Position numbers and translations under genes: made by a program. Shown here piece after piece: positions 17,584-30,044 of a DNA stretch of 64,000 bases. The stretch covers positions 857 through 64,856 of the forward strand of contig CAYZYE010000003.1 in the NCBI GenBank assembly GCA_964481205.1, read 5' to 3'. Within the stretch, counting starts at the first letter, position 1. The number at the start of each line of letters is the position of its first letter. The stretch is from an uncultured Anaerolineae bacterium. GTDB taxonomy: Bacteria > Chloroflexota > Anaerolineae > JAFGEY01. The notes beneath the pieces are model-generated. The model had not been told where the DNA came from. It was given only the letters and a program-made list of their open reading frames with translations, and did no database searches.

Positions 17584-19065
17584 CTATTCGACAGGCTCGT
17601 CCTGCCCAACCACCAACCGCTGCACCTGCTCCCAGCAGCGCACGATCTGCTGCATCTCTTTCCGGCTGTCCGGCGCTTCGCCGTAATGCACGCGCACATA
17701 GGCCTCGGTGATCGTATCGACCGCTTCGCGCCCCTCTGGAAACGCCCGGTACAACGTGCGCCGGTGCTCATACGGCGTCGTCGCCGGCCGGCGTGGATGG
17801 CCGGCCTCGGCGGCCAGGTCGACCATACTGGCGTAAATCTTGCGGATCGACGCCGCCGAACGCTTTTTACGGTCGCCCAGTTGAGACATCCAGGCGCGTA
17901 CATTGTCCAACCCTTGCCGCAAACTGTTTTTCAAATCATCGACCAGGTCTTGCGCCGACCACACCGACTCGCGGTCGAGATCGTCTTCCTTTTCGCGCTC
18001 TGCCATCAACCGACGAATCATCCTCGCCACCAGCAGCAAACCGCCCACCAGCGCGAGCGCGATCAAGATCGAGTTACAATACGAAAACCACTCGCGAAAA
18101 TCCTCGGCGCCCTGATCGAGAATCGGGCTGAACATCGGCGACGCAAACAATGTCTCATCCTGCCCGCTGCGGTTCCGCTCGACCAAATGAATCAGATCGA
18201 CCAGCCATTCGAGCAATGGGTAAAACAAATAAAACAACACACCGATGCCATACCAGGCTATCTGCCTGAAAAAGTCAATCGCCGGCCGCAAGCGATTGAG
18301 CAGCGCCGTCAAAACCTGCCTGGAGAACAAAGCCGCCAGGAGCAGCGCCAACCCCAAACTGCTCAACGAAGAACCGATCAACACCGCCACCCACTGCTTA
18401 CTACCCAGCGAACTGTCGTGGATGCCACCCACCTCCAACATACGCGCCAGAGCAATGCTGATCAAACCAAAAACAAAACAAGCGGCCACAGCGCCGATCA
18501 AATTCTCGCGCTGGCCCAACATGGCAACCAAAAAATAGGCCAGCAAAACAACAATCCCAACCCGAAAATGGAACCCGACCTGCCGCACATCGTACCCCTT
18601 GCGGCTCAAAACGATCCCCCGCCACCAACACACAAAAAGCACGCCAATGACCACCAGATCGGGCGGCAACCCCACCATGGCGCTAAAAAGCCGGTCCGTC
18701 GAAGCGACCAACCATCCCAGGTCGCCCAACGCATAATCGCCGTACAAAACCAGGCGGAGCGTCGCCACGATGGTCAAAATCATCAACCCGGCGACAACCG
18801 CCTGCCGTCGGTCAGCAGTCAGCGCGGTACGATTGAGCAAACTGGCGCACAAATAAGGCACCCACATCAACGCGCACATTCCCAAAAACGAAATCGCGTG
18901 TACCCGATTCTGCGCCAGCGCATTGAACAACAAATACCAGGGATAGATCACGCCGGCTTCCATCGCCGCCAAACTGAGATACAACAACTCTTCAACCCAG
19001 TCAATGCCGGCCCAGCGAATCGAGGTCAAATCGCGCCAAAAACCGCCCTGTTCAGCCGCGTTCAC
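17584..19065 (-). CDS. Multi-pass membrane protein with C-terminal DUF4129-like domain
   Basis: About 10 TM helices, then a cytoplasmic tail with a TPYEHRRTL motif typical of DUF4129. It overlaps the DUF58 gene by 14 nt. Confidence 0.55.
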   Translation of the reverse strand: MNAAEQGGFWRDLTSIRWAGIDWVEELLYLSLAAMEAGVIYPWYLLFNALAQNRVHAISFLGMCALMWVPYLCASLLNRTALTADRRQAVVAGLMILTIVATLRLVLYGDYALGDLGWLVASTDRLFSAMVGLPPDLVVIGVLFVCWWRGIVLSRKGYDVRQVGFHFRVGIVVLLAYFLVAMLGQRENLIGAVAACFVFGLISIALARMLEVGGIHDSSLGSKQWVAVLIGSSLSSLGLALLLAALFSRQVLTALLNRLRPAIDFFRQIAWYGIGVLFYLFYPLLEWLVDLIHLVERNRSGQDETLFASPMFSPILDQGAEDFREWFSYCNSILIALALVGGLLLVARMIRRLMAEREKEDDLDRESVWSAQDLVDDLKNSLRQGLDNVRAWMSQLGDRKKRSAASIRKIYASMVDLAAEAGHPRRPATTPYEHRRTLYRAFPEGREAVDTITEAYVRVHYGEAPDSRKEMQQIVRCWEQVQRLVVGQDEPVE

Positions 19066-20479
19066 CCGACATCCCTTCCTTCCAGGCCGACCACCCGGTC
19101 AGCACAGCATCGCGCCGCATCACGTCATCGAGCTGCTGCACCGCCGACGTCTGCACCGGATAATAAGCCGACATCGCGTCGGGCAAATGGTAAGTCAAAA
19201 TCCGGTCACTCAACAACGGATCGGGCGCCTTTTTGTCCAACGAAATCAACACCAAACGTCGTCCTGCATCGTGCAGACTTAGCAACGTGGTACTCAACTC
19301 TTTGGAAACAATCGCCGTGACCACGATCAACGTGGCCCCCCAGGGCAAACGCGGACTCGAGCGGCTCAACAATTGAGCGATGCTCTGCGTTGCCACCGGC
19401 GTCACCGCCGCCAACGCCTCCAAAATGCGCGTCAGCTGCTGCGGATCGCGCCCCGGCAGCACCTTGATCGGCTGGTCGGAACGCGGCACCGAACCATTGG
19501 CCATCAAACCGGTCACATACCGCCTGCCCACCGAAAAACTGCTCACCGAAGCGGCCACACTGATACACCGCTCCAACAAATCGGGGATCGTCCCCATCCA
19601 ATACCGTTCCAGCGTAGCCACATTGAGAAAAACCATCACCGTAAACGAAGTGGTCGGTTCGTAAACCTTGACCTGCAACTCTTGCCGCCGCGCCGTCGCC
19701 TTCCAATGAATGTGACGAAACCCATCGCTGGGAAAATGATCGCGCACCCCAATCGTCCGCGAAGGGTCTTCAAACATCCGCTGCCGCGCCTTGGTCTCGC
19801 CAAAAGGATCCTTGGGCGGCAGCCCCAACTCGTCGATCGGCAGCACCCGGGGGTAAACAATCAACCAGTGATAGCGGGGAAAAAAATACCGGCTCTTGAA
19901 AATACCAAAAATATCGCCGCTGGTCATCCGCGCCGGGCCGATCCGGTAAAATCCACGATGCTCACACAAAATGCGATAATGGAGACGCACACGCTCGTAC
20001 CAACGCAGCGAAAAACTGTTCTCCAACACCATCCGTTCCGATCCCGAGGCCGGATGCAAATCCTTTTGCTTTTCTGCCAACCCCAGATTCTCCGGCCACT
20101 CGTCCTGAACATGCAACCAACCCAACGGCAGCAACTTGCGGTTCTCCACCGTCAGCGTCAGCTCGACCGTCTCGCCGATAAAAGCGCGGCGCGGCGACAG
20201 TTGGCGCGCGTACAATACGCGGCGCAAAGCAAAATGATTCCACAGGCGGGCAATGGGCAACACAGTCAAGAGCAGCACGCCCAACAAAGTCAGCCCCACC
20301 TGGCGCGAAAACAAACCAATCAGCAAACAAAGAATCGCAAAAGCGATCCAGGCGTCATTGAACAAGGCGCGATCGTCTAGCGACTGCGTCTTAGCCGGCT
20401 GACCGCCGGCCAACGATTCGTCTGCCGCGCCCTCTGGGGGATGCCGCGTTTGCTGCTTTGCTCCCATCGTCTCGACCAT
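19052..20479 (-). CDS. DUF58 domain protein (vWA-like), MoxR partner
   Basis: Two N-terminal TM helices. The DUF58 core motif DGFRHIHWKATARRQELQVKVYE is present. Confidence 0.8.
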   Translation of the reverse strand: MVETMGAKQQTRHPPEGAADESLAGGQPAKTQSLDDRALFNDAWIAFAILCLLIGLFSRQVGLTLLGVLLLTVLPIARLWNHFALRRVLYARQLSPRRAFIGETVELTLTVENRKLLPLGWLHVQDEWPENLGLAEKQKDLHPASGSERMVLENSFSLRWYERVRLHYRILCEHRGFYRIGPARMTSGDIFGIFKSRYFFPRYHWLIVYPRVLPIDELGLPPKDPFGETKARQRMFEDPSRTIGVRDHFPSDGFRHIHWKATARRQELQVKVYEPTTSFTVMVFLNVATLERYWMGTIPDLLERCISVAASVSSFSVGRRYVTGLMANGSVPRSDQPIKVLPGRDPQQLTRILEALAAVTPVATQSIAQLLSRSSPRLPWGATLIVVTAIVSKELSTTLLSLHDAGRRLVLISLDKKAPDPLLSDRILTYHLPDAMSAYYPVQTSAVQQLDDVMRRDAVLTGWSAWKEGMSGERG

Positions 20480-20483
20480 CGCT

Positions 20484-21422
20484 CTAGAGCGTTTCCACCG
20501 GCGCCGGCACCAAATCGACCACTTCCATTACCACCTCTTCTGGCGTGCGACCGCGCAGCCGCGTCTGCGGGCTAATGATCACGCGATGAGTCAGCACACA
20601 AGGCGCAAGCGCCTTGACATCGTCGGGAATGACAAAATCGCGCCCCTGGATGGCCGCGCGCGCCTGCGCGGTGCGATACAACGCCATCGTACCACGCGGG
20701 CTGGCCCCAAGCGCCACCGCACTGTGCTCGCGGGTAGCGCGCGCCACCCGCACGGCATACTCACGCACCGAATCCTCGACGCGAACCCGGCGCACGGCGC
20801 GCTGCAACTCGATCAACTCTTGCGGCTCGGTAACGGCCTGCAAATCATCGAGCGGATCGGCGCGCTCAAAACGGAGCAAAATATCACCCTCCTCCTGCTC
20901 TGTCGGATAGCCGAGCTTGACCTTGAGCAAAAAACGGTCCACCTGCGCCTCCGGCAGTGGAAACGTACCCTCCAATTCGATCGGGTTCTGCGTCGCCAGC
21001 ACCAAAAACGGACGCGGCAGCATCATCGTCTTGCCATCCACCGTCACCTGTCGCTCCTGCATCGCCTCCAGCAGCGCCGACTGGGTGCGCGGCGTGGCGC
21101 GATTGATCTCGTCGGCAAGCACAATCTGCGACATCACCGGCCCGGCGCGGAACTCGAATTCCTGCTGTTTCTGATTAAAATAATAAATCCCGGTCACATC
21201 GGAAGGCAGCAAGTCGGGCGTAAACTGGATGCGCTGAAACGAACAACCCAGCGACCTGGCCATCGCCTTGGCCAGCGTCGTCTTGCCGATGCCGGGCACA
21301 TCTTCCAGCAACACATGCCCCTCGCACAACAGTGAAATCAACAACAACTCGATCACCTCGTCCTTGCCAATGATGACCTTTTTTACATTTTCAGCAATAC
21401 GCCTCGCGGCCTCTGCAATCAT
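20484..21422 (-). CDS. moxR: MoxR-family AAA+ ATPase
   Basis: Walker A DVPGIGKT, Walker B VLADEINRA, and a MoxR-type C-terminus. Confidence 0.9.
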   Translation of the reverse strand: MIAEAARRIAENVKKVIIGKDEVIELLLISLLCEGHVLLEDVPGIGKTTLAKAMARSLGCSFQRIQFTPDLLPSDVTGIYYFNQKQQEFEFRAGPVMSQIVLADEINRATPRTQSALLEAMQERQVTVDGKTMMLPRPFLVLATQNPIELEGTFPLPEAQVDRFLLKVKLGYPTEQEEGDILLRFERADPLDDLQAVTEPQELIELQRAVRRVRVEDSVREYAVRVARATREHSAVALGASPRGTMALYRTAQARAAIQGRDFVIPDDVKALAPCVLTHRVIISPQTRLRGRTPEEVVMEVVDLVPAPVETL

Positions 21423-22339
21423 ATCTCCTCACTTTTCGTTGGCGACAACTTGTCTGCAAGCGCCTTGAAATCATCCACCTCGTAAAATCCAGGCTCGTAC
21501 AATCGATCCAACACCGTCAACAATTCCGTCTCGAAATCACCCAAAGAGATGGGAATTCCAGAAACATTCAAATGCCCCAACAACGCAGACACCAACTCGT
21601 GCCCGCCCATCTCCTCGATATATCGGCCTTGCTCCCAAAAATCGCAATGCGTACACCTGTCCAAATTTCGATCATAGCATCGATCGATGTGCAAGTCGTC
21701 AAACTCGGCTGCCTGGCAAAACGTCTGGCAATCGGCGCACAGCCTTGCGCACTCTTGATGCAAATACTCGAGCCAGACCTGACGATCTGGATACCGCGCC
21801 GGTCGCAAGGGACGACGGCGATCGGGATGCAAAAAACGCAGATCAACCAACTCTTTTTTTCGACCCACCAATTGCCAATAAGTCAGCCAGCCCACAAAAT
21901 GCTCCACCATCGGACGCGCCAACTCTTGCATCAACAAATCCACTTGCGACGCCAATGTTGGTAACGCAGCCGACCTGGGAATGTATGAACATAGATTTTC
22001 AAACACCTGGGCAACCACTCGAAAATCCAACAAATAGTTTTCAATTTCGTGCCGCCGCCAGATGAAACGCCGCGAATCAGAACGCCACGAATCATCTGCA
22101 ACCTGGCGAGACCGATAATTGCGATCCTCAATCGTAAAAACGCGATCCAACGACTCGCCCAAACCATCGCCCCGCAACCGAGAACGCTCTCGATAATGTT
22201 CGGCCACGCTGCGAAGACTGGCGTCGCCACAAGCCGGGTAGAGCATCACCTCCAAAGCAAACTTTTGAACCACCAACATATTCAGCACGCGATCATCGAG
22301 TCCGCCACGGCGTCCTTCACAAATCAGCACATTCCCCAT
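21419..22339 (-). CDS. AriB-like DUF4435/TOPRIM-type protein (putative PARIS effector) with Cys-rich C-terminal region
   Basis: The N-terminus is VLICEGRRGGLDDRV (TOPRIM-like EG motif). A central HEIENYLLD motif. Seven Cys in CARLCADC...CYDRNLDRCTHC. Lower GC than the flanks. Its stop forms an ATGA overlap with the moxR start. Confidence 0.5.
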   Translation of the reverse strand: MGNVLICEGRRGGLDDRVLNMLVVQKFALEVMLYPACGDASLRSVAEHYRERSRLRGDGLGESLDRVFTIEDRNYRSRQVADDSWRSDSRRFIWRRHEIENYLLDFRVVAQVFENLCSYIPRSAALPTLASQVDLLMQELARPMVEHFVGWLTYWQLVGRKKELVDLRFLHPDRRRPLRPARYPDRQVWLEYLHQECARLCADCQTFCQAAEFDDLHIDRCYDRNLDRCTHCDFWEQGRYIEEMGGHELVSALLGHLNVSGIPISLGDFETELLTVLDRLYEPGFYEVDDFKALADKLSPTKSEEI

Positions 22340-22344
22340 ACCCC

Positions 22345-23454
22345 TTATCTCCTGCCTCGTCGATCGCCGAGATCGCCCAGATCAATGATCGCGTCGCCGG
22401 GCACATTATCGCGCAAATAAGCTGAATGTGTGGTCACGATAAACTGATTATCGATCCCCATTTTGGGGAGCAAATTGAGCAGTTTTCGCTGCCATAAAGG
22501 GTGTTGATGAAGTTCGATCTCGTCTATCAGGACGATAGAGCGATTGATGTGCTCTGTGACCATTTTGATCAAAAACAGCAACATCATTTGCTCACCACTG
22601 CTTAGACCATCATATTTATACTCGTATTCGCCCTGGCGAAAACAAAGGTCGAGTTCATCCTGTGCATTTCTTACCGCACCCACAAGTTGGTGAGGCTTGC
22701 AAACCTGATCGTACCTGGATTTGATCAAAGAAAATTGATCTGACCTGGTGTCTTGCGCCGACGGAAACGCCGATTTGACAGCCAAAGCCAGCAAGATCGT
22801 GCGCGGGTCTGTGGTATACCGGCGATCCGGCCAATCTTGAATGCTCTCTTCAGGTATCGAGTATTGAATAATTTTCCAAATATCTCGCTGAATCACCTTG
22901 CCCATGCCGGTACGCTGTTGATCAAAGACAAACACACCGCCAACACGGCTGAACCATTCCAGCCCCACTCGTTCCGTAGACAGCAGCCGGGCCGCGGTCG
23001 CTCGCCCCTTGAGCAAATTGCAACCGTGGCTTGGATCGCACTGGATATGAAAACGACTCCCCTTATATTGTGATGACGGAAAATCCCAGGTGACTTGGAC
23101 AACCCGATCATCTTGCACCTGTCCCTCCGGCTCTTCGGCCAGCGAGAACAAACGTCGGACCGCATCGATCTCGTCTTGAGAAAAATGAATCGTGCTTGTC
23201 ACCCGCGCGCGAACCGCGCCACGGCGAACGAGCGCCCTCGATCCTAAAACAAAACCGGATCGTAATGGCACCGGTCGCAGTTCAGTCGCAAGCCCCACGC
23301 CGGCCGCAATCGCGTCCAGAATCGTCGTTTTGCCACTCGTGTTTGGCCCGACAATCACCGATACATCGCGCACACGCCCTAACGAATCGGTGAAATCCAA
23401 TTCCAGTCTCTCGATGTGCCTGAAATTCTCAATCACCATTTTAGCTATCTTCAT
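22345..23454 (-). CDS. AriA-like ABC/AAA_21-type ATPase (putative PARIS sensor ATPase)
   Basis: Walker A GPNTSGKTT, ABC signature LSSGEQ, Walker B VLIDEIELHQHP, H-loop TTHS. Lower GC. Its start overlaps the mnmG stop in an ATGA overlap. Confidence 0.75.
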   Translation of the reverse strand: MKIAKMVIENFRHIERLELDFTDSLGRVRDVSVIVGPNTSGKTTILDAIAAGVGLATELRPVPLRSGFVLGSRALVRRGAVRARVTSTIHFSQDEIDAVRRLFSLAEEPEGQVQDDRVVQVTWDFPSSQYKGSRFHIQCDPSHGCNLLKGRATAARLLSTERVGLEWFSRVGGVFVFDQQRTGMGKVIQRDIWKIIQYSIPEESIQDWPDRRYTTDPRTILLALAVKSAFPSAQDTRSDQFSLIKSRYDQVCKPHQLVGAVRNAQDELDLCFRQGEYEYKYDGLSSGEQMMLLFLIKMVTEHINRSIVLIDEIELHQHPLWQRKLLNLLPKMGIDNQFIVTTHSAYLRDNVPGDAIIDLGDLGDRRGRR

Positions 23455-25388
23455 CTCGGCGTCCCTCTCTCCAGATACACCAACAAAATCGTCACATCGG
23501 CCGGGTTGACGCCGGCGATGCGCGTCGCCTGCCCCACCGACAGCGGGCGGTAGCGAATCAACTGCTCGCGCGCCTCGTTGCGCAACCCTGGAATTGCACG
23601 GTAATCAAAATCGGGCGGAATGCGACGCCTTTCCAGCCGCGCCATCCGCTCCACCTCTACCTGCTGGCGGGCGATATAGCCCGCGTACTTGGCCTCGATC
23701 TCGACCTGCCCGGCCGCCGAAGCCGAAAGCGCCTGATCGGGCGGCGCAACCTGGCGCAGCAGCGCGTAACTCGCTTCAGGACGGCGCAGCAGCGACAGTG
23801 CGTTGAGACCATCATCGATCGGCGCGATCCCGGCCCCGGCCAAAGCCCGGTTCACCTCTGCGGTAGGGCGCAGCCAAACCCGTTCCAGCCGCGCCAATTC
23901 CTCGCCGATGGCCGCCCGCTTGCGCTCGACGGCATCATACCGCTGGCGCGAAACCAAACCGACCTCGTAACCGATCGGCGTCAAACGCAGATCGGCATTG
24001 TCCTGCCGCAACAACAGCCGGTACTCGGCGCGCGAGGTCATGATCCGGTACGGCTCGGCCTGCGGCTTGGTGACCAAATCATCGACCAGCACGCCAATAT
24101 AAGCCTGATCGCGTCGCAGCAACAACGGCGCTTTGCCCTGCACATACAATGCGGCATTGATCCCGGCCACCAGCCCTTGCGCCGCCGCCTCCTCATAACC
24201 CGACGTGCCGTTGATCTGGCCGGCGTGGTACAGCCCTTCGACATGTTTAGAGGCCAGCGCGCCGTCAAACTGCCCGCCCGTGACCGCGTCGTACTCGATC
24301 GCATAGCCGGGACGCATGATCTCGGCCTCGCGCAGCGCCGGAATTGTGCGCAGCGCGGCAATCTGCACCTCCTCCGGCATCCCGGTGAACAGCCCTTGCA
24401 CATACACCTCGCTCGTCAGCCAGCCCTCCGGCTCGAGAAAAAAGAGATGACTCGCCTTGTCGGGAAAACGCACCAACTTTTCCTCAAAAGAAGGGCAATA
24501 ACGCGGCCCGGCCGCCTCGATCGCCCCCGGCGTGACCAACGACCGATCGAGGTTGGCGCGCATCACCCGGTGCGTTTCTGCATTGGTGCGAATGGTATAA
24601 CAAGGCAGCTGCGGCCGCCACGCGGTCTGTTTCCCCAACGGATAAACTGGGTTGGGCGGCTGCCGCATAAAGTAGGGACAGCGCAGATCCGAATCCGGGT
24701 CGGCATCGGGCGACTCGTAACTGAAATACAACGGCTCCTCGCTGCCCGGTTGAAACCCGGTTTGGCTAAAATCGATCGTCCGCGCGTCGATGCGGGGCGG
24801 CGTGTTGGTCTGCAAGCGCGTCAACGTATAGCCCAGCCGGGCCAACGACGCCGACAGCTTGTTGGCCGGAAACTCGGCCGCCCGCCCCGATGGAAAACGC
24901 TGCCGCCCGCGCATCACCTTGGCAGCCAGGAACGTGCCCGTGGTCAACACCACCGACCGCGCCCGGTATTCATACCCGGTGTAGACGCGCACGCCGCACA
25001 CACGCCCGTCCTTTTCAAGCACATCGGTGACACGCGCCTGCTTGAGCTGCAAATTCGGCGTCGATTCCAACGTGTGCTTGAGCTGCACGGCATAGTGCCG
25101 CTTGTCCGACTGCGAGCGCAACGCCTGCACCGCCGGTCCTTTGGACACATTGAGCAAGCGAATTTGCACAAAATTGGCGTCGACGGCGCGCGCCATCTGC
25201 CCGCCCAAGGCATCGATCTCGCGCACAATGTGCCCTTTGCCCGGCCCGCCGATGCCGGGATTGCACGGCATTTGAGCGATCAAGTCCAAATTCATCGTCA
25301 ACAACAATGTGCGCGCGCCCATCCGCGCGGCGGCCAACGCCGCCTCACAGCCGGCATGCCCGGCGCCCACAACCAATACATCATACAT
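23451..25388 (-). CDS. mnmG: tRNA uridine 5-carboxymethylaminomethyl modification enzyme
   Basis: YDVLVVGAGHAGCEAALAAARMG FAD motif. Collinear with the MnmG/GidA family along its 645-aa length. Confidence 0.9.
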   Translation of the reverse strand: MYDVLVVGAGHAGCEAALAAARMGARTLLLTMNLDLIAQMPCNPGIGGPGKGHIVREIDALGGQMARAVDANFVQIRLLNVSKGPAVQALRSQSDKRHYAVQLKHTLESTPNLQLKQARVTDVLEKDGRVCGVRVYTGYEYRARSVVLTTGTFLAAKVMRGRQRFPSGRAAEFPANKLSASLARLGYTLTRLQTNTPPRIDARTIDFSQTGFQPGSEEPLYFSYESPDADPDSDLRCPYFMRQPPNPVYPLGKQTAWRPQLPCYTIRTNAETHRVMRANLDRSLVTPGAIEAAGPRYCPSFEEKLVRFPDKASHLFFLEPEGWLTSEVYVQGLFTGMPEEVQIAALRTIPALREAEIMRPGYAIEYDAVTGGQFDGALASKHVEGLYHAGQINGTSGYEEAAAQGLVAGINAALYVQGKAPLLLRRDQAYIGVLVDDLVTKPQAEPYRIMTSRAEYRLLLRQDNADLRLTPIGYEVGLVSRQRYDAVERKRAAIGEELARLERVWLRPTAEVNRALAGAGIAPIDDGLNALSLLRRPEASYALLRQVAPPDQALSASAAGQVEIEAKYAGYIARQQVEVERMARLERRRIPPDFDYRAIPGLRNEAREQLIRYRPLSVGQATRIAGVNPADVTILLVYLERGTPR

Positions 25389-26755: not shown

Positions 26756-28417
26756 CTAATCGCCAAAATTCGACTGCCGCCCCACGGCGTGCCGGTAGGT
26801 TTTGAACCCGCCGTTCAAATTGACGGCGTCAAAACCGCGCTGGGTCAACATCCGGCAGGCGTAATAGGCCCGCTGCCCGGCGTGGCAATAGACAACCACC
26901 CGTCGATCTTGGGGAACCTCGTCCAAACGGTCGCGCAGCTGCGCCAGGGGGATGTGAACCATGCCCTCGATATGGCCGGCCTTCAACTCGGCCGCGTCAC
27001 GCACATCCAGGATAAAATCCCTGTCCTGTTCCAGCGAAGCGACATCATCCCAATCAATGGTCTTGACATCGCCGCGCAACATATTGGAGGCGACAAATCC
27101 GACCATGTTGACCGGGTCGCGCGCCGAACCAAAAGGCGGCGCGTAACACAACTCCAATTCTTCCAGATCGAACGCCGTCAACCCGGCGCGCAGCGCGGTA
27201 GCCACCACGTCGATGCGCTTGTCCACGCCATCCCCACCGACAATCTGCGCGCCCAACAGCCGGCCATCCGGTGCAAAAAGCAACTTGAAGGTCATCGACG
27301 ATGCACCAGGATAATATCCGGCGTGATTGGCCTCGTGAATGATCGCACTGCGGTACTCGATACCGGCCCGCTCCAACTGCCGGCCGTTCATCCCCGTTGT
27401 CGCCACCGTCAAGTCGAAAACCTTGACAATCGACGTGCCTTGCACCCCTTTGTAGCGCACCGCCCGCCCGGCGATGTGATCGGCGACCAACCGCCCCTGC
27501 TTGCTGGCCGGCCCGGCCAGCGGCAAATTGGTCGGCTGGCCGGTGAGCAAATGCGTCACCAGCACCGCGTCGCCGATGGCATAAATATCGGGGTCAGAGG
27601 TTTGCAAATGCTCATTGGTGGCAATCGCGCCTCGCGCGCCGAGGGTCAGACCGGCAGCCTGCGCCAACTGCCCTTCGGGTCGCACGCCGATAGCCAAAAT
27701 GACCATATCGGCGTCGACGCGGCTGCCGCTCGACAAGGCCACGCGCAAACCGCCATCCACCTGCGTGATCGCTTTGAGGCCGTCGCCAAGCGCCAGCCGC
27801 AACTTTTTGGCCTGCAAATGATAATGCACCAACGCCGCCATTTCGAAATCCAGCGGCGCCATCACCTGATCCATCATTTCGACCAACGTCACCTTGACGC
27901 CCAGGTGCTCCAAATTTTCGGCCAACTCGATGCCGATGAAACCGCCGCCCACGACCACGGCGCGTGAGGGATGTTTGCGATCGATAAACCCCTTGATCGC
28001 GTCCGTATCTGGAATGTTGCGCAACGAGAACACGCCGCCCAGGTCGCAGCCGGGCACAGGCGGCTTGAAAGGCGCCGCGCCGGGAGAGAGGATCAATTTG
28101 TCATACGCTTCCGTGTATTCGAGACCGGTTTTGCGATTTTTGACCAGCACCACCTTGTTCTGACGATCGATCTCGAGAACCTGATTGTCGACACGGGCAT
28201 CGACATTGAACACCGCCTTGAATGCCTGCGGCGTCTGCACCAGCAATTTCTTTCGCTCCTTGATCACACCGCCGATATAGTACGGCAGCCCACAATTGGC
28301 AAAAGAGAGATATGAACCGCGTTCCAGCAAAACGATCTCGGCATATTCATCCATACGCCGCAAACGCGCCGCGGCACTCGCGCCGCCGGCCACACCACCC
28401 ACGATCACCACCTTCAT
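26756..28417 (-). CDS. CoA-disulfide reductase / NADH oxidase-like pyridine nucleotide-disulfide oxidoreductase with C-terminal rhodanese domain
   Basis: MKVVIVGGVAGGASAA FAD motif. Redox-active SFANCGLPY Cys. C-terminal VVVYCHAGQRAYYA rhodanese loop. RBS GGAGGG. Confidence 0.8.
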   Translation of the reverse strand: MKVVIVGGVAGGASAAARLRRMDEYAEIVLLERGSYLSFANCGLPYYIGGVIKERKKLLVQTPQAFKAVFNVDARVDNQVLEIDRQNKVVLVKNRKTGLEYTEAYDKLILSPGAAPFKPPVPGCDLGGVFSLRNIPDTDAIKGFIDRKHPSRAVVVGGGFIGIELAENLEHLGVKVTLVEMMDQVMAPLDFEMAALVHYHLQAKKLRLALGDGLKAITQVDGGLRVALSSGSRVDADMVILAIGVRPEGQLAQAAGLTLGARGAIATNEHLQTSDPDIYAIGDAVLVTHLLTGQPTNLPLAGPASKQGRLVADHIAGRAVRYKGVQGTSIVKVFDLTVATTGMNGRQLERAGIEYRSAIIHEANHAGYYPGASSMTFKLLFAPDGRLLGAQIVGGDGVDKRIDVVATALRAGLTAFDLEELELCYAPPFGSARDPVNMVGFVASNMLRGDVKTIDWDDVASLEQDRDFILDVRDAAELKAGHIEGMVHIPLAQLRDRLDEVPQDRRVVVYCHAGQRAYYACRMLTQRGFDAVNLNGGFKTYRHAVGRQSNFGD

Positions 28418-28446
28418 CAAACCCTCCCCGTTTGTCGAAAAAAACA

Positions 28447-28530
28447 GCAAAAATAACCATCCCCCGTTGCTCTCGCCGGATTTGGCAATCCGGACCGGGC
28501 AGGCCGGGACAATTTAAACTCGGGAACTCG
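28447..28530. repeat. ~75-bp direct repeat copy 1 (CGTTGCTCTCGCCGGATTTGGCAATCCGG...AATTTAAACTCGGGAACTCG)
   Basis: A second copy lies at 28722-28800. It shares the GGATTTGGCAATCC hairpin with 14101-14124. Confidence 0.65.
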
Positions 28531-28721
28531 AGCCCAACATGATCGGATGAAGGGATTATACTCTGCTTTGAACCCCCTGACAAGAAAAATTTGGCGATCG
28601 GGTTGCCGTCCAACCATGCGCAGATTTAGATTTGTGGTATAATTTGCTGCGCTCGACCAGCCCTGCTCTGGGCTGCGTTTGAATGCCCATCGAGCGCGAT
28701 AAGGCGTTTCCAGAAAAACAA

Positions 28722-28800
28722 CCAGCGTTGCTCTCGCCGGATTTGGCAAGCCGGGCAGACTGGGACAATTTAAATTCTGGAACTCGGCAATCAAAGTTCT
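28722..28800. repeat. ~75-bp direct repeat copy 2
   Basis: The same block with small substitutions. Confidence 0.65.
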
Positions 28801-28844: not shown

Positions 28845-30044
28845 TTGGAGATTGGATTGAACAAAGCACCGACTTGGGTCCGTTCCGGCCTGGACGTCCT
28901 TTTGAACGAACGCCCCGGCCTGCTTGGCGACGCGCGCGTCGGATTAGTGACCAATTCGAGCGCGATCACGGCCAACGCAACGCCGATCATTGACGCGCTA
29001 CGCCCGGTGTGCAACCTGGTCGCGCTCTTTGGCCCCGAACACGGCCTTTACGCCCATGCCGCCGACGGGGCCGCCGTTTCATCGACGGTCGATGCGCAAA
29101 CGGGGTTGCCGATACACAGCCTTTATGGCCTCGCTAAAAACGGCCGCGCCAAAAAACCAACCGCCGACATGCTGCGCGGCATCGATCTGCTGCTGTTTGA
29201 CATTCAAGACGTCGGCGCACGTTTTTACACCTATATCTGGACAATGAGCTATGTGCTCGAAAGCGCCGCCGAACATGGCGTCCCGCTGATCGTCCTCGAC
29301 CGCCCCAACCCCATCGGCGGGCAAATCACCGCCGGCCCGGTCATCGAACCAGGGTTCGAGTCATTTGTGGGGCGCTATTTGCTCCCGCTGCGGCATGGCC
29401 TGACCATGGGCGAATTGGCCCGGCTGTTCAACACCCAACGCGGGTTGAACGCCGACCTGACCGTCATCCCGGCCCAGTGGTGGCGACGCGCCATGTGGTT
29501 CGATCAGACCGGCCTGCCCTGGGCGCCGCCATCGCCGGCGATGCCCAAACCGGAAACCGCCGTCGTCTACCCCGGCACGTGTCTGCTGGAAGGGACCAAT
29601 GTCTCGGCCGGACGCGGCACGGCCACGCCGTTCGAGCTGCTCGGCGCGCCGTGGATCGACGGCCACCGTCTGGCCGACGCGCTCAATGCAAGATCGCTGC
29701 CCGGCGTGCGCTTTCGCCCCACCTTTTTTACGCCATCGGCGGCCAAATACGCGGGCCAAACGTGCGGGGGCGTTTTTCTGCACGTGCTCGATCGTTCAGT
29801 CTGGCGGCCCCTGCAAACCGGACTGCACATCATCGCCGCCATTCGCGCGCTCTGGCCCAGCGACTCGAGGTGGCTGGAATCAAGTTGGGAAGGACGCCCG
29901 GCGCACCTGGACTTGCTCATCGGCAACGGCTGGGTGCGCAAACAACTCGACGCCGGCGTCGCCATCGAGCAGATCACCGAACGCTGGCAAAACGCGCTGG
30001 CGCGATTCAACAAACTGGCGCAAAAGTATTTCTTGTATACCTAG
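28845..30044 (+). CDS. DUF1343 family exo-beta-N-acetylmuramidase (NamZ-like)
   Basis: Length and conserved blocks (GLVTNSS...LFGPEHG...FDIQDVGARFYTY) match DUF1343. Confidence 0.75.
   Translation: MEIGLNKAPTWVRSGLDVLLNERPGLLGDARVGLVTNSSAITANATPIIDALRPVCNLVALFGPEHGLYAHAADGAAVSSTVDAQTGLPIHSLYGLAKNGRAKKPTADMLRGIDLLLFDIQDVGARFYTYIWTMSYVLESAAEHGVPLIVLDRPNPIGGQITAGPVIEPGFESFVGRYLLPLRHGLTMGELARLFNTQRGLNADLTVIPAQWWRRAMWFDQTGLPWAPPSPAMPKPETAVVYPGTCLLEGTNVSAGRGTATPFELLGAPWIDGHRLADALNARSLPGVRFRPTFFTPSAAKYAGQTCGGVFLHVLDRSVWRPLQTGLHIIAAIRALWPSDSRWLESSWEGRPAHLDLLIGNGWVRKQLDAGVAIEQITERWQNALARFNKLAQKYFLYT

Follow-up and report, generated by a model that had tools for sequence, protein, structure and literature searches.

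Architecture and insertion site of the cassette

The 64-kb window (the whole stretch of DNA analysed, from an uncultured Anaerolineae bacterium) carries a two-gene cassette on the minus strand between mnmG and moxR. The upstream gene (22345..23454) encodes a 369-aa ABC (AAA_15/AAA_21) ATPase, a candidate 'AriA-like' sensor or scaffold with a PtuA-like fold. After a gap of 5 nt, on the same strand and separated by a stop codon, a second ORF (21419..22339) encodes a 306-aa AriB-like protein with a TOPRIM and a helical domain, the candidate nuclease effector (hereafter, the partner). At each end the cassette overlaps the flanking gene by ATGA: upstream, the stop codon of mnmG with the start codon of the ATPase gene (23451..23454, minus strand); downstream, the stop codon of the partner gene with the start codon of moxR (21419..21422, minus strand). 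The first-pass annotation had described both ORFs, the sequence motifs of both proteins and the two overlaps; all are present on the minus strand, and the motifs were verified by translation. The overlaps also mark the insertion boundaries: cassette-free relatives diverge after 'VYLER' of MnmG, and in cassette-free loci moxR matches from residue 1. The C-terminal tail of the partner, LSPTKSEEI (21422..21448, minus strand), reaches the moxR start and runs ~8 residues beyond the end of most homologues, which stop at about '...ADRL(x)' in the alignment.

The low GC content claimed for both genes is confirmed and lies well outside chance expectation. GC in the cassette is 0.516, compared with 0.590 for the window; a 2,036-bp stretch with lower GC is found at 0.16 % of positions in the 64 kb, and the minimum for any such stretch (0.513) belongs to one that overlaps the cassette. 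GC3 is 0.56, compared with 0.71–0.78 in six neighbouring genes. More broadly, GC falls below that of the flanks in 14/16 cassette loci, clearly so in the window.

Close relatives of the host provide the corresponding empty sites. In the closest of them (L118; MnmG 86 % identical), mnmG is followed after 26 nt by moxR-DUF58-DUF4129 with no cassette, and three further loci (L048, L050 and L061) are also cassette-free, with mnmG–moxR spacers of 38–104 nt. These empty sites, together with the low GC and GC3, back the proposal of horizontal acquisition, and the cassette is inserted into the short mnmG–moxR spacer of this bacterium. The ATGA overlaps are no sign of a functional tie to mnmG or moxR: these two genes lie next to each other, 26–104 nt apart, in the cassette-free relatives. 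Rather than a conserved mnmG/moxR housekeeping module with native GC, the comparison returned empty sites and foreign GC.

A search for mobile-element boundaries gave none: direct or inverted repeats do not flank the cassette junctions, the 64-kb window yielded no tRNA gene, and the annotated neighbourhoods showed no integrase. In 28 homologous loci only one tRNA gene was found, 3.5 kb from the cassette. Matches to promoter and terminator consensus sequences, which might have indicated that the cassette has its own, occurred at the level expected by chance, and Rfam returned no match over the whole window.

Conserved motifs and predicted folds

The ATPase encodes a complete motif set on the minus strand, each motif containing residues that are invariant across 35 homologues: a Walker A motif, GPNTSGKT (G36–T43, 23326..23349; invariant G36, P37, N38, G41, K42 and T43), a Q-loop region, FDQQR (F177–R181, 22912..22926; F177, Q179 and R181), an ABC signature, LSSGEQ (L284–Q289, 22588..22605; S285, S286, G287 and E288), a Walker B motif, VLIDE (V308–E312, 22519..22533; D311 and E312) and an H-loop, TTHS (22423..22434; T341, H343 and S344). 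A check against Pfam, suggested at first pass, placed both AAA_15 (86.5 bits) and AAA_21 (71.2 bits) above threshold. Judged by these residues, the domain matches and a PADLOC match to AriA (3.8e-26), the ATPase is likely to be catalytically competent and of the right kind for an AriA-like role. It is indeed short for an AriA, as had been remarked (369 aa compared with 464 aa in E. coli AriA). The long AriA-type coiled-coil four-helix bundle is missing from the predicted model, which has in its place only ~65 residues of short, lower-confidence helices (190–251).

The partner returned nothing significant when its sequence was searched directly against PDB, Pfam, NCBIfam and PHROGs; its relationship to AriB is seen only by profiles and structure. 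The AF2 model (pLDDT 93.8) predicts a fold of the AriB type, with a TOPRIM domain at the N terminus and a bundle of helices at the C terminus, and in a Foldseek search of the PDB only AriB chains were significant (E value 6.2e-5, prob 1.00). AriB was also ranked first in a profile search against PDB sequences.

The active site of AriB comprises E26, D30, D88, E90 and E122 (PMC10802264). In the partner, the TOPRIM glutamate motif C7-E8-G9 (22313..22321, minus strand) aligns with 'EG' of AriAB and is almost invariant (E8 in 127/128 family members, C7 in 126/128); E8 appears equivalent to AriB E26, and D15 to D30. The profile alignment to AriB sets the acidic motif D72-R73-N74 (22118..22126, minus strand) on D88-R89-E90, with D72 and R73 present in all 128 members. 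The RHEIENYLL motif (R96–L104, 22028..22054, minus strand) aligns with 'GHSLENYFF' of AriB and 'RHEIENYLLD' of AriAB, and here E100, placed on AriB E122, is found in 127/128 members and H97 in 124/128. Overall, E8, D15, D72 and E100 are conserved in 119–128 of the 128 members, and the equivalent of E90 is N74 in this protein.

Seven Cys residues (C197, C201, C204, C208, C221, C229 and C232; 21644..21751, minus strand) form a patch on two predicted helices of the C-terminal domain (186–209 and 215–230), which the first-pass annotation took as a hint of an added zinc-binding module. The residues are real but unconserved: the family median here is one Cys, and at five of these seven sites no more than 5/128 homologues have Cys. 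A zinc module is therefore rejected as a family feature, and the patch is peculiar to this one protein.

Relationship to PARIS and other defence systems

PADLOC matched the partner itself to the fused AriAB model only (1.6e-7), over 54 residues (aa 66–119); among aligned family members, it matched AriAB in 31/31 (best 9.4e-16) and AriB in 10/31, and no other defence family. When HHalign was used to compare the family profile with a merged AriAB of bona fide status (L039; PADLOC AriAB 2.9e-138, DUF4435 33.5 bits), it returned a match of 96 % (E value 4.8e-9) in which CEG..D, DR(N/D)Y and RHEIENYLLD are aligned; the family profile falls on the DUF4435 half of this protein. The fold match unique to AriB, the PADLOC matches and this profile alignment support the suggestion that the pair is related to PARIS AriA/AriB.

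The Pfam DUF4435 model itself gave no match to the window partner even at E≤1, and only 2 of the 31 family members match it (best E value 0.01). Distant members reach OLD-like_TOPRIM at 23.5 and 24.0 bits (gathering score 23.2) and DUF4435 at 3e-5 and 20–24 bits, under its gathering score. The DUF4435/TOPRIM relationship expected at first pass held for the AriB fold and for OLD-like_TOPRIM in distant relatives, but not for DUF4435 in the protein itself. The original PARIS rule requires adjacent, co-directional genes for AAA_15 (at least 32 bits) or AAA_21 (at least 27 bits) and DUF4435 (PF14491, at least 27 bits) (Rousset et al. 2022). The adjacent ATPase is present, but the locus fails this rule because DUF4435 is absent at threshold, and this fits the earlier reading of a divergent, undescribed variant.

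Among known systems, PARIS (OLD-like class 4) comes closest, above all the clades with merged AriAB and the two-gene clade that is sister to them. As in PARIS, a gene for an AAA_15/AAA_21 ABC ATPase is directly followed by a gene for a protein of ~300 aa, the motif series EG...D / DRx / HxxENY common to AriB and AriAB is present, and the only PADLOC models matched by the partner and its family are those of AriAB and AriB. PARIS differs in reaching Pfam DUF4435, in an AriB that is only 13–16 % identical to the partner, in having E90 where Asn is found here and in the coiled-coil bundle of E. coli AriA, which forms the hexamer and holds the Ocr binding site (PMC10802264).

Other ATPase–nuclease systems resemble the cassette in part. 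In OLD class 1/2 (P2 Old, Thermus/Burkholderia OLD and Gabija GajA), the two domains are fused rather than encoded by two genes, and their likeness to the partner is much weaker than that of AriB; Gabija also has a GajB-type UvrD helicase, whereas the cassette is flanked by mnmG and moxR, with no helicase among its neighbours. AbiL (AbiLi/AbiLii), RloAB and MADS3-4 share the general two-gene logic, and the ATPase matches the PADLOC models AbiLi (8.5e-19) and mad3 (1.4e-16); however, the partner has no RloB, DUF4276, AbiLii or mad4 match in Pfam or PADLOC, and RloB and AbiLii were also not found in 31 relatives (E≤1).

The ATPase itself leans towards PtuA of Septu and retron type I-A. PtuA is its best PADLOC model (1.2e-28, compared with 3.8e-26 for AriA, with PtuA models scoring as well as AriA or better) and its best NCBIfam match, retron PtuA chains are its top PDB sequence matches, and in fold it resembles Septu/retron PtuA more than the single AriA of solved structure, so the name 'AriA' is owed mainly to the partner. 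To our knowledge, a structure has been solved for just one of the eleven AriA clades, which counts against reading the locus as a Septu/retron-I-A-type machine with a swapped effector. In such a machine, a PtuA-like ATPase oligomer would control an AriB-like TOPRIM nuclease instead of PtuB, the logic of sensing and regulation would be that of Septu and not the PARIS scheme of a trigger protein binding a coiled coil, and the system would still be anti-phage, though of another lineage and control. AAA_15/21 ATPases do combine with many different effectors (Burman et al.). Nevertheless, we consider this origin rather unlikely. The PtuA-versus-AriA HMM ranking is uninformative as a classifier, as in the bona fide merged AriAB, too, a PtuA model (5e-31) outranks those of AriA (1.1e-25); the NCBIfam match to PtuA, at 79.5 bits, stays far under the 500-bit cut-off; and the ATPase profile aligns with AriAB at 98.7 % probability. 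PtuA is partnered by the HNH nuclease PtuB, whereas the AriB-like partner here has no HNH match in Pfam or PADLOC, and neither a reverse transcriptase nor an ncRNA is nearby.

A PARIS-like pairing of the two genes is found well beyond this host. At ~30 loci, the ATPase gene lies immediately upstream of the partner gene on the same strand, with overlaps or few-nt gaps between the two also in other loci, and identity to the window proteins co-varies between the two genes (r=0.74, 25 loci), as reported in the literature for the co-evolving ariA and ariB. Carriers of the pair belong to Chloroflexota, Acidobacteriota, Myxococcota/'Deltaproteobacteria', Planctomycetota, Firmicutes and Armatimonadota. 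The clade is chromosomal, mostly from uncultured Chloroflexota, Planctomycetota, Acidobacteriota and Myxococcota, and has one cultured carrier, Fimbriiglobus ruber. Homologous cassettes occupy unrelated genomic contexts, mostly among housekeeping genes and not in defence islands, and neither mnmG nor moxR was found within 8 kb of the ~30 homologous loci. Several cassettes adjoin tRNA-related genes (TilS, GluRS/GlnRS and GlyQS); a search for enrichment of such neighbours, mnmG included, by tblastn against all loci yielded no further cases, and the observation is anecdotal. Carriage by phages or plasmids was rejected, as searches of IMG/VR (viral contigs), INPHARED (phages) and PLSDB (plasmids) yielded no copy; PARIS, by contrast, is often carried by viruses or satellites.

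This absence from the phage and plasmid collections, the tight two-gene layout and the scatter among housekeeping genes would also suit a selfish toxin–antitoxin-like addiction module with no dedicated anti-phage role, in which the ATPase neutralizes a TOPRIM toxin and the cost of loss keeps the pair in place; PARIS itself acts as a type II toxin–antitoxin pair (PMC10802264). However, all known relatives of the same architecture (PARIS, OLD, Gabija, AbiL and MADS) are defence systems, and the full invariant ATPase motif set exceeds what a simple antitoxin needs, making pure addiction improbable, and the two roles are not mutually exclusive.

Proposed function and significance

We consider that the cassette, acquired horizontally, is probably an ATPase–nuclease module of two genes that is PARIS-like (OLD-family 'class 4'-like) and belongs to a distinct, unannotated clade, with a function that we infer from its relatives. 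The missing DUF4435, the restriction of the PADLOC match in the partner to aa 66–119, the short ATPase, N74, the absence from the phage and plasmid collections and the mostly housekeeping neighbours argue against this reading. In PARIS, an AriA6–AriB3 complex releases AriB when triggered by Ocr, and the AriB dimer cleaves tRNA-Lys (PMC11464382, PMC10802264, PMC12409363). By analogy, the ATPase may oligomerize and keep the AriB-like TOPRIM protein inactive in toxin–antitoxin fashion, until a phage-derived cue, with ATP binding or hydrolysis, releases it. The released protein would then dimerize and cleave nucleic acid (RNA or tRNA being the most plausible, as with AriB) at a metal site formed by E8, D15, D72, N74 and E100, and the cutting would stop growth and abort the infection. 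Complex formation, trigger, substrate and anti-phage role are each proposed on this analogy. The sensing step probably differs from that of canonical PARIS, because the modelled ATPase is without the long coiled-coil bundle to which Ocr attaches in the E. coli system.

The putative metal ligand N74 raises the question of whether the nuclease can cut at all. In AriB, replacement of E90 by Ala abolishes defence (PMC10802264), and this substitution-sensitive position, the unusual, lineage-specific Cys content and the extension of the C-terminal tail into moxR might together mark a decaying or catalytically dead remnant. This is very improbable: both ORFs are intact, the remaining catalytic and motif residues are all conserved and the fold is predicted with very high confidence. 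Furthermore, position 74 is Asp in 67, Asn in 59 and Glu in 2 of the 128 family members, and the recurrence of Asn in otherwise well-conserved proteins suggests a functional residue.

Scarcely credible, and already largely refuted by the empty sites, is a housekeeping RNA/tRNA-processing pair working with mnmG or moxR. On this view, the ATGA overlaps at both junctions of a co-directional gene string would stem from a functional link within an operon, the TOPRIM protein would have an action like that of M5 RNase (to which AriB-type TOPRIM domains are structurally close; PMC10802264) and the TilS, GluRS/GlnRS and GlyQS neighbours would fit. It is rejected because mnmG-moxR-DUF58-DUF4129 is retained cassette-free in the closest relatives and ~30 homologous loci lack mnmG and moxR within 8 kb; the foreign GC and GC3, the patchy taxonomic spread and the failure of tRNA-gene neighbourhoods to recur beyond those few loci also stand against it.

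Returning to the PARIS-like reading, a bolder form of it, which we advance only tentatively and hold to be doubtful, is that these loci represent a hitherto overlooked sister clade of PARIS with at least 115 clusters at 50 % identity. Chromosomal and not phage-borne, its members would combine a minimal PtuA-like ATPase, devoid of the coiled coil that binds the trigger, with a nuclease of AriB fold in which a metal ligand is often Asn, sense infection otherwise than by Ocr-type binding to the coiled coil, maybe cut another target, and escape the original Pfam-based rule and probably current finders. PARIS-type immunity would then be under-counted in Chloroflexota, Planctomycetota, Acidobacteriota and Myxococcota.

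If the PARIS-like reading is true, PARIS-type ATPase–TOPRIM immunity extends to phyla for which cultured genomes give poor coverage, and current censuses would under-count it because the clade escapes the defining Pfam DUF4435 model. The minimal ATPase, without the Ocr-binding coiled coil, would offer a natural comparison for separating the parts of AriA that sequester the nuclease from those that sense. The empty-site comparison indicates that a defence-type cassette can enter a tight string of housekeeping genes and gain ATGA overlaps; operon-like packing therefore gives no evidence of a housekeeping function. Finally, Fimbriiglobus ruber, as a cultured carrier, makes the clade testable.

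The mnmG–moxR interval and the inserted cassette

The cassette consists of two minus-strand ORFs, an ATPase gene (22345–23454, 369 aa) and, after a gap of 5 nt, the gene for its partner (21419–22339, 306 aa). It is flanked by mnmG (23451–25388; Pfam GIDA, 1.9e-144) and by moxR, encoding a MoxR-type AAA_3 ATPase (20484–21422; AAA_3, 1.1e-65), downstream of which Pfam identified DUF58 and DUF4129 genes. ATGA stop/start overlaps occur at both outer junctions (mnmG/ATPase and partner/moxR). The GC content of the cassette is 51.6 % vs 59.0 % for the window, with almost no 2-kb stretch across the 64 kb falling lower, and its GC3 is 0.56 vs 0.71–0.78 in six neighbouring genes. Translation of both ORFs recovered every motif quoted in the first-pass annotation, whose ORF positions, overlaps and low GC were likewise confirmed in the window; the observation is therefore real and chance is excluded.

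All named MnmG matches at 69–86 % identity belong to Anaerolineae or Chloroflexi. In the closest relative (GCA_016929205.1, MnmG 86 % identical), mnmG is followed after 26 nt by moxR, DUF58 and DUF4129 with no cassette, and three further metagenome contigs (MoxR 80–84 % identical) have mnmG–moxR spacings of 38–104 nt; the cassette is therefore an insertion, peculiar to this lineage, into a short spacer. The operon-like packing had appeared puzzling; however, the ATGA overlaps follow from this tight landing site, aided by a short C-terminal tail of the partner that is absent from most homologues, and they do not argue for a housekeeping role. The insertion is marked by no repeats, by no tRNA gene or integrase, and by no promoter match above chance level.

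The string mnmG-moxR(AAA_3)-DUF58-DUF4129 is common to the window (17584–25388) and the closest Anaerolineae relatives (cassette-free site L118, 1–5836), placing a MoxR/DUF58 (BatA-like) module directly downstream of a tRNA-modification gene. A sigma-70-like match (TCGCCA-16-TATGAT, 21418–21445, minus strand), of a kind occurring here at chance frequency, lies in the C-terminal tail of the partner immediately upstream of moxR and could be a moxR promoter kept from or made by the insertion. Elsewhere in the window, a ~76-nt element is present in two direct copies (28455–28530 and 28716–28786; 87–89 % identical, 256–261 nt apart), intergenic between the genes at 26756–28450 and 28845–30044; it returned no match in Rfam.

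The ATPase and its partner protein

The ATPase exceeds the Pfam thresholds for AAA_15 (86.5 bits) and AAA_21 (71.2 bits). Across an alignment of 35 homologues (51–69 % identity), the Walker A (G36–T43), Q-loop (Q179), signature (S285–E288), Walker B (D311, E312) and H-loop (H343) residues are invariant; selection is therefore maintaining the protein as a working ABC ATPase. Its PADLOC scores are near-equal for PtuA (1.2e-28), AriA (3.8e-26) and AriAB (4.9e-26). This ranking is compatible with a PARIS affiliation, as the bona fide merged AriAB of locus L039 (704 aa; PADLOC AriAB 2.9e-138) is itself matched better by a PtuA model (5e-31) than by the AriA models (1.1e-25); the ATPase profile aligns to this AriAB with a probability of 98.7 %. 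Some ATPases of the family (L115, 6684–7997; P0248 and P0269) are longer, at 437–451 aa, with an extra segment matching Pfam IF2_N (PF04760).

The partner was more elusive. Single-sequence searches of Pfam, NCBIfam, PHROGs and PDB sequences returned no match, and the DUF4435 hit anticipated by the first-pass annotation was thus missing from the Pfam search; the sole single-sequence match was to the PADLOC fused AriAB model (54 residues, 1.6e-7). None of the 59 clusters of its family (90 % identity) is annotated, and an exhaustive profile search gathered 115 clusters (50 % identity) at E < 1e-30 and 878 at E < 1e-3. Deeper comparisons are consistent and specific, and they identify the partner as a TOPRIM protein of AriB fold whose branch has diverged too far for PF14491 to match. 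Firstly, among 31 aligned family members, all matched the PADLOC AriAB model (best 9.4e-16) and 10 matched AriB, with no other defence family detected. Secondly, a profile search of PDB sequences ranked AriB top, but at a sub-significant E value of 0.21, aligning D72-R73-N74 with D88-R-E90 and HEIE100NY with HSLE122NY. Thirdly, when the family profile was compared by HHalign with the DUF4435 half of the L039 AriAB (33.5 bits to DUF4435), the probability was 96 % over 105 columns (E value 4.8e-9), and the motifs CEG..D, DR(N/D)Y and RHEIENYLLD were paired. Finally, some remote relatives within the family attain the gathering score of OLD-like_TOPRIM and come close to that of DUF4435. The first-pass reading of a divergent PARIS-like or ABC-ATPase/TOPRIM pair is supported. 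The merged AriAB of L039 (6555–8669, Verrucomicrobiia MAG) bears an identical RHEIENYLLD, while the AriAB copy of L043 (6664–8675, Chloroflexia MAG) is apparently two ORFs, through a frameshift or a natural split.

Counted over 128 full-length members, the site is strongly conserved at both its N-terminal (C7, 126; E8, 127; D15, 119) and central residues (D72 and R73, 128 each; H97, 124; E100, 127; N101, 119). One active-site position differs notably: the equivalent of AriB E90, whose substitution by alanine abolishes defence (PMC10802264), is Asn in the partner and D, N or E in 67, 59 and 2 of the 128 members; this even D/N split, where conservation is otherwise strong, hints that Asn may be tolerated.

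A cysteine patch in two helices of the C-terminal domain (residues 197–232; 21644–21751, minus strand) had been suggested to form an added zinc-binding module. Its seven cysteines are spaced i/i+3–4 (C197, 201, 204 and 208 on one helix; C221, 229 and 232 on the next helix and turn) but are unique to the partner, the closest homologue (63 % identity) having two in this stretch and the family a median of one, which rules out a conserved zinc module. The patch might be a metal site, a redox site or mere drift.

Pairing, hosts and neighbourhoods

At each of the ~30 loci whose sequence extends far enough upstream, the partner gene is immediately preceded, on the same strand, by the ATPase gene. Identities range over 30–62 % for the ATPase and 23–48 % for the partner and co-vary (r = 0.74, n = 25). 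Most carriers are MAGs, from Anaerolineae/Chloroflexota, Acidobacteriota, Myxococcota/'Deltaproteobacteria' and Planctomycetota (Gemmataceae), together with one Heliomicrobium and one Armatimonadia; the one cultured carrier is Fimbriiglobus ruber (partner WP_088253016.1, annotated 'hypothetical protein').

Neighbourhoods of the homologous cassettes are mutually unrelated (TilS and PEPCK; radical SAM and RlaP; hydrolase, DinB and RadA; FtsW and GluRS; Memo and sulfatase; TPR and CN-hydrolase; MutS) and are not defence islands, and mnmG/moxR was found near none of the cassettes at the ~30 loci. Cassette GC is below that of the flanks in 14/16 loci. Together with the cassette-free mnmG–moxR sites of close relatives, the low GC and unrelated neighbourhoods uphold the earlier proposal of horizontal acquisition. 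No copies were found in IMG/VR, INPHARED or PLSDB, a point on which this clade is unlike canonical PARIS.

Several independent insertions adjoin genes for tRNA modification or for aminoacyl-tRNA synthetases, or sit within ~2.3 kb of such genes: mnmG in the window (23451–25388), TilS (L001/L116), GluRS and GlnRS (L113, 8995–12292) and GlyQS (L114, 1574–4584). AriB being a tRNA-cutting enzyme, this proximity is curious; a tblastn search for further cassettes adjacent to tRNA-related genes returned no more cases. Small toxin–antitoxin-type genes lie no more than a few kb from several homologous cassettes (PIN_3, L001 12729–13214; PemK, L116 10874–11218; DUF433, L005 1475–1819), with no recognised multi-gene defence system seen beside these three. 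In F. ruber (L117, 12842–14575), a gene for a 577-aa AAA_21-methyltransferase fusion ~2.8 kb downstream of the cassette, past mutS, could be another defence-type gene.

Relation to PARIS and a candidate mechanism

The cassette matches PARIS in architecture, ATPase motifs and AriB fold, and we consider it highly probable that the pair is a PARIS-related ATPase–TOPRIM module. It departs from the original PARIS rule (an AAA_15 or AAA_21 match together with ≥27 bits to DUF4435) in lacking such a DUF4435 match. Other systems fit less well: it lacks the RloB match of AbiL/RloAB, the fused nuclease of OLD/Gabija and the HNH partner of Septu. It is best described as a divergent PARIS-like clade rather than a categorically new system.

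In PARIS, AriB is sequestered by a hexamer of AriA, which can hold as many as three monomers at its head–head interfaces. Ocr binding and ATP turnover free AriB; it then forms dimers that cleave tRNA-Lys, and translation stops (PMC11464382, PMC10802264, PMC12409363). By homology, the ATPase would keep the partner inactive until a phage cue led to its release, whereupon the partner would cut RNA or tRNA. On this analogy, we lean slightly towards an abortive-infection or toxin–antitoxin-type defence acting through sequestration and release; that the target is a tRNA is possible but rather doubtful. The sensing step probably differs from that of E. coli PARIS, since the four-helix coiled-coil bundle by which AriA hexamerises and engages Ocr (PMC10802264) is missing from the ATPase, whose model has only ~65 residues of short helices, partly low-confidence, at this position.

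Resting on prediction and homology, the finding is solid; it overturns nothing, and slightly broadens the range of sequences and hosts known for PARIS-type systems.
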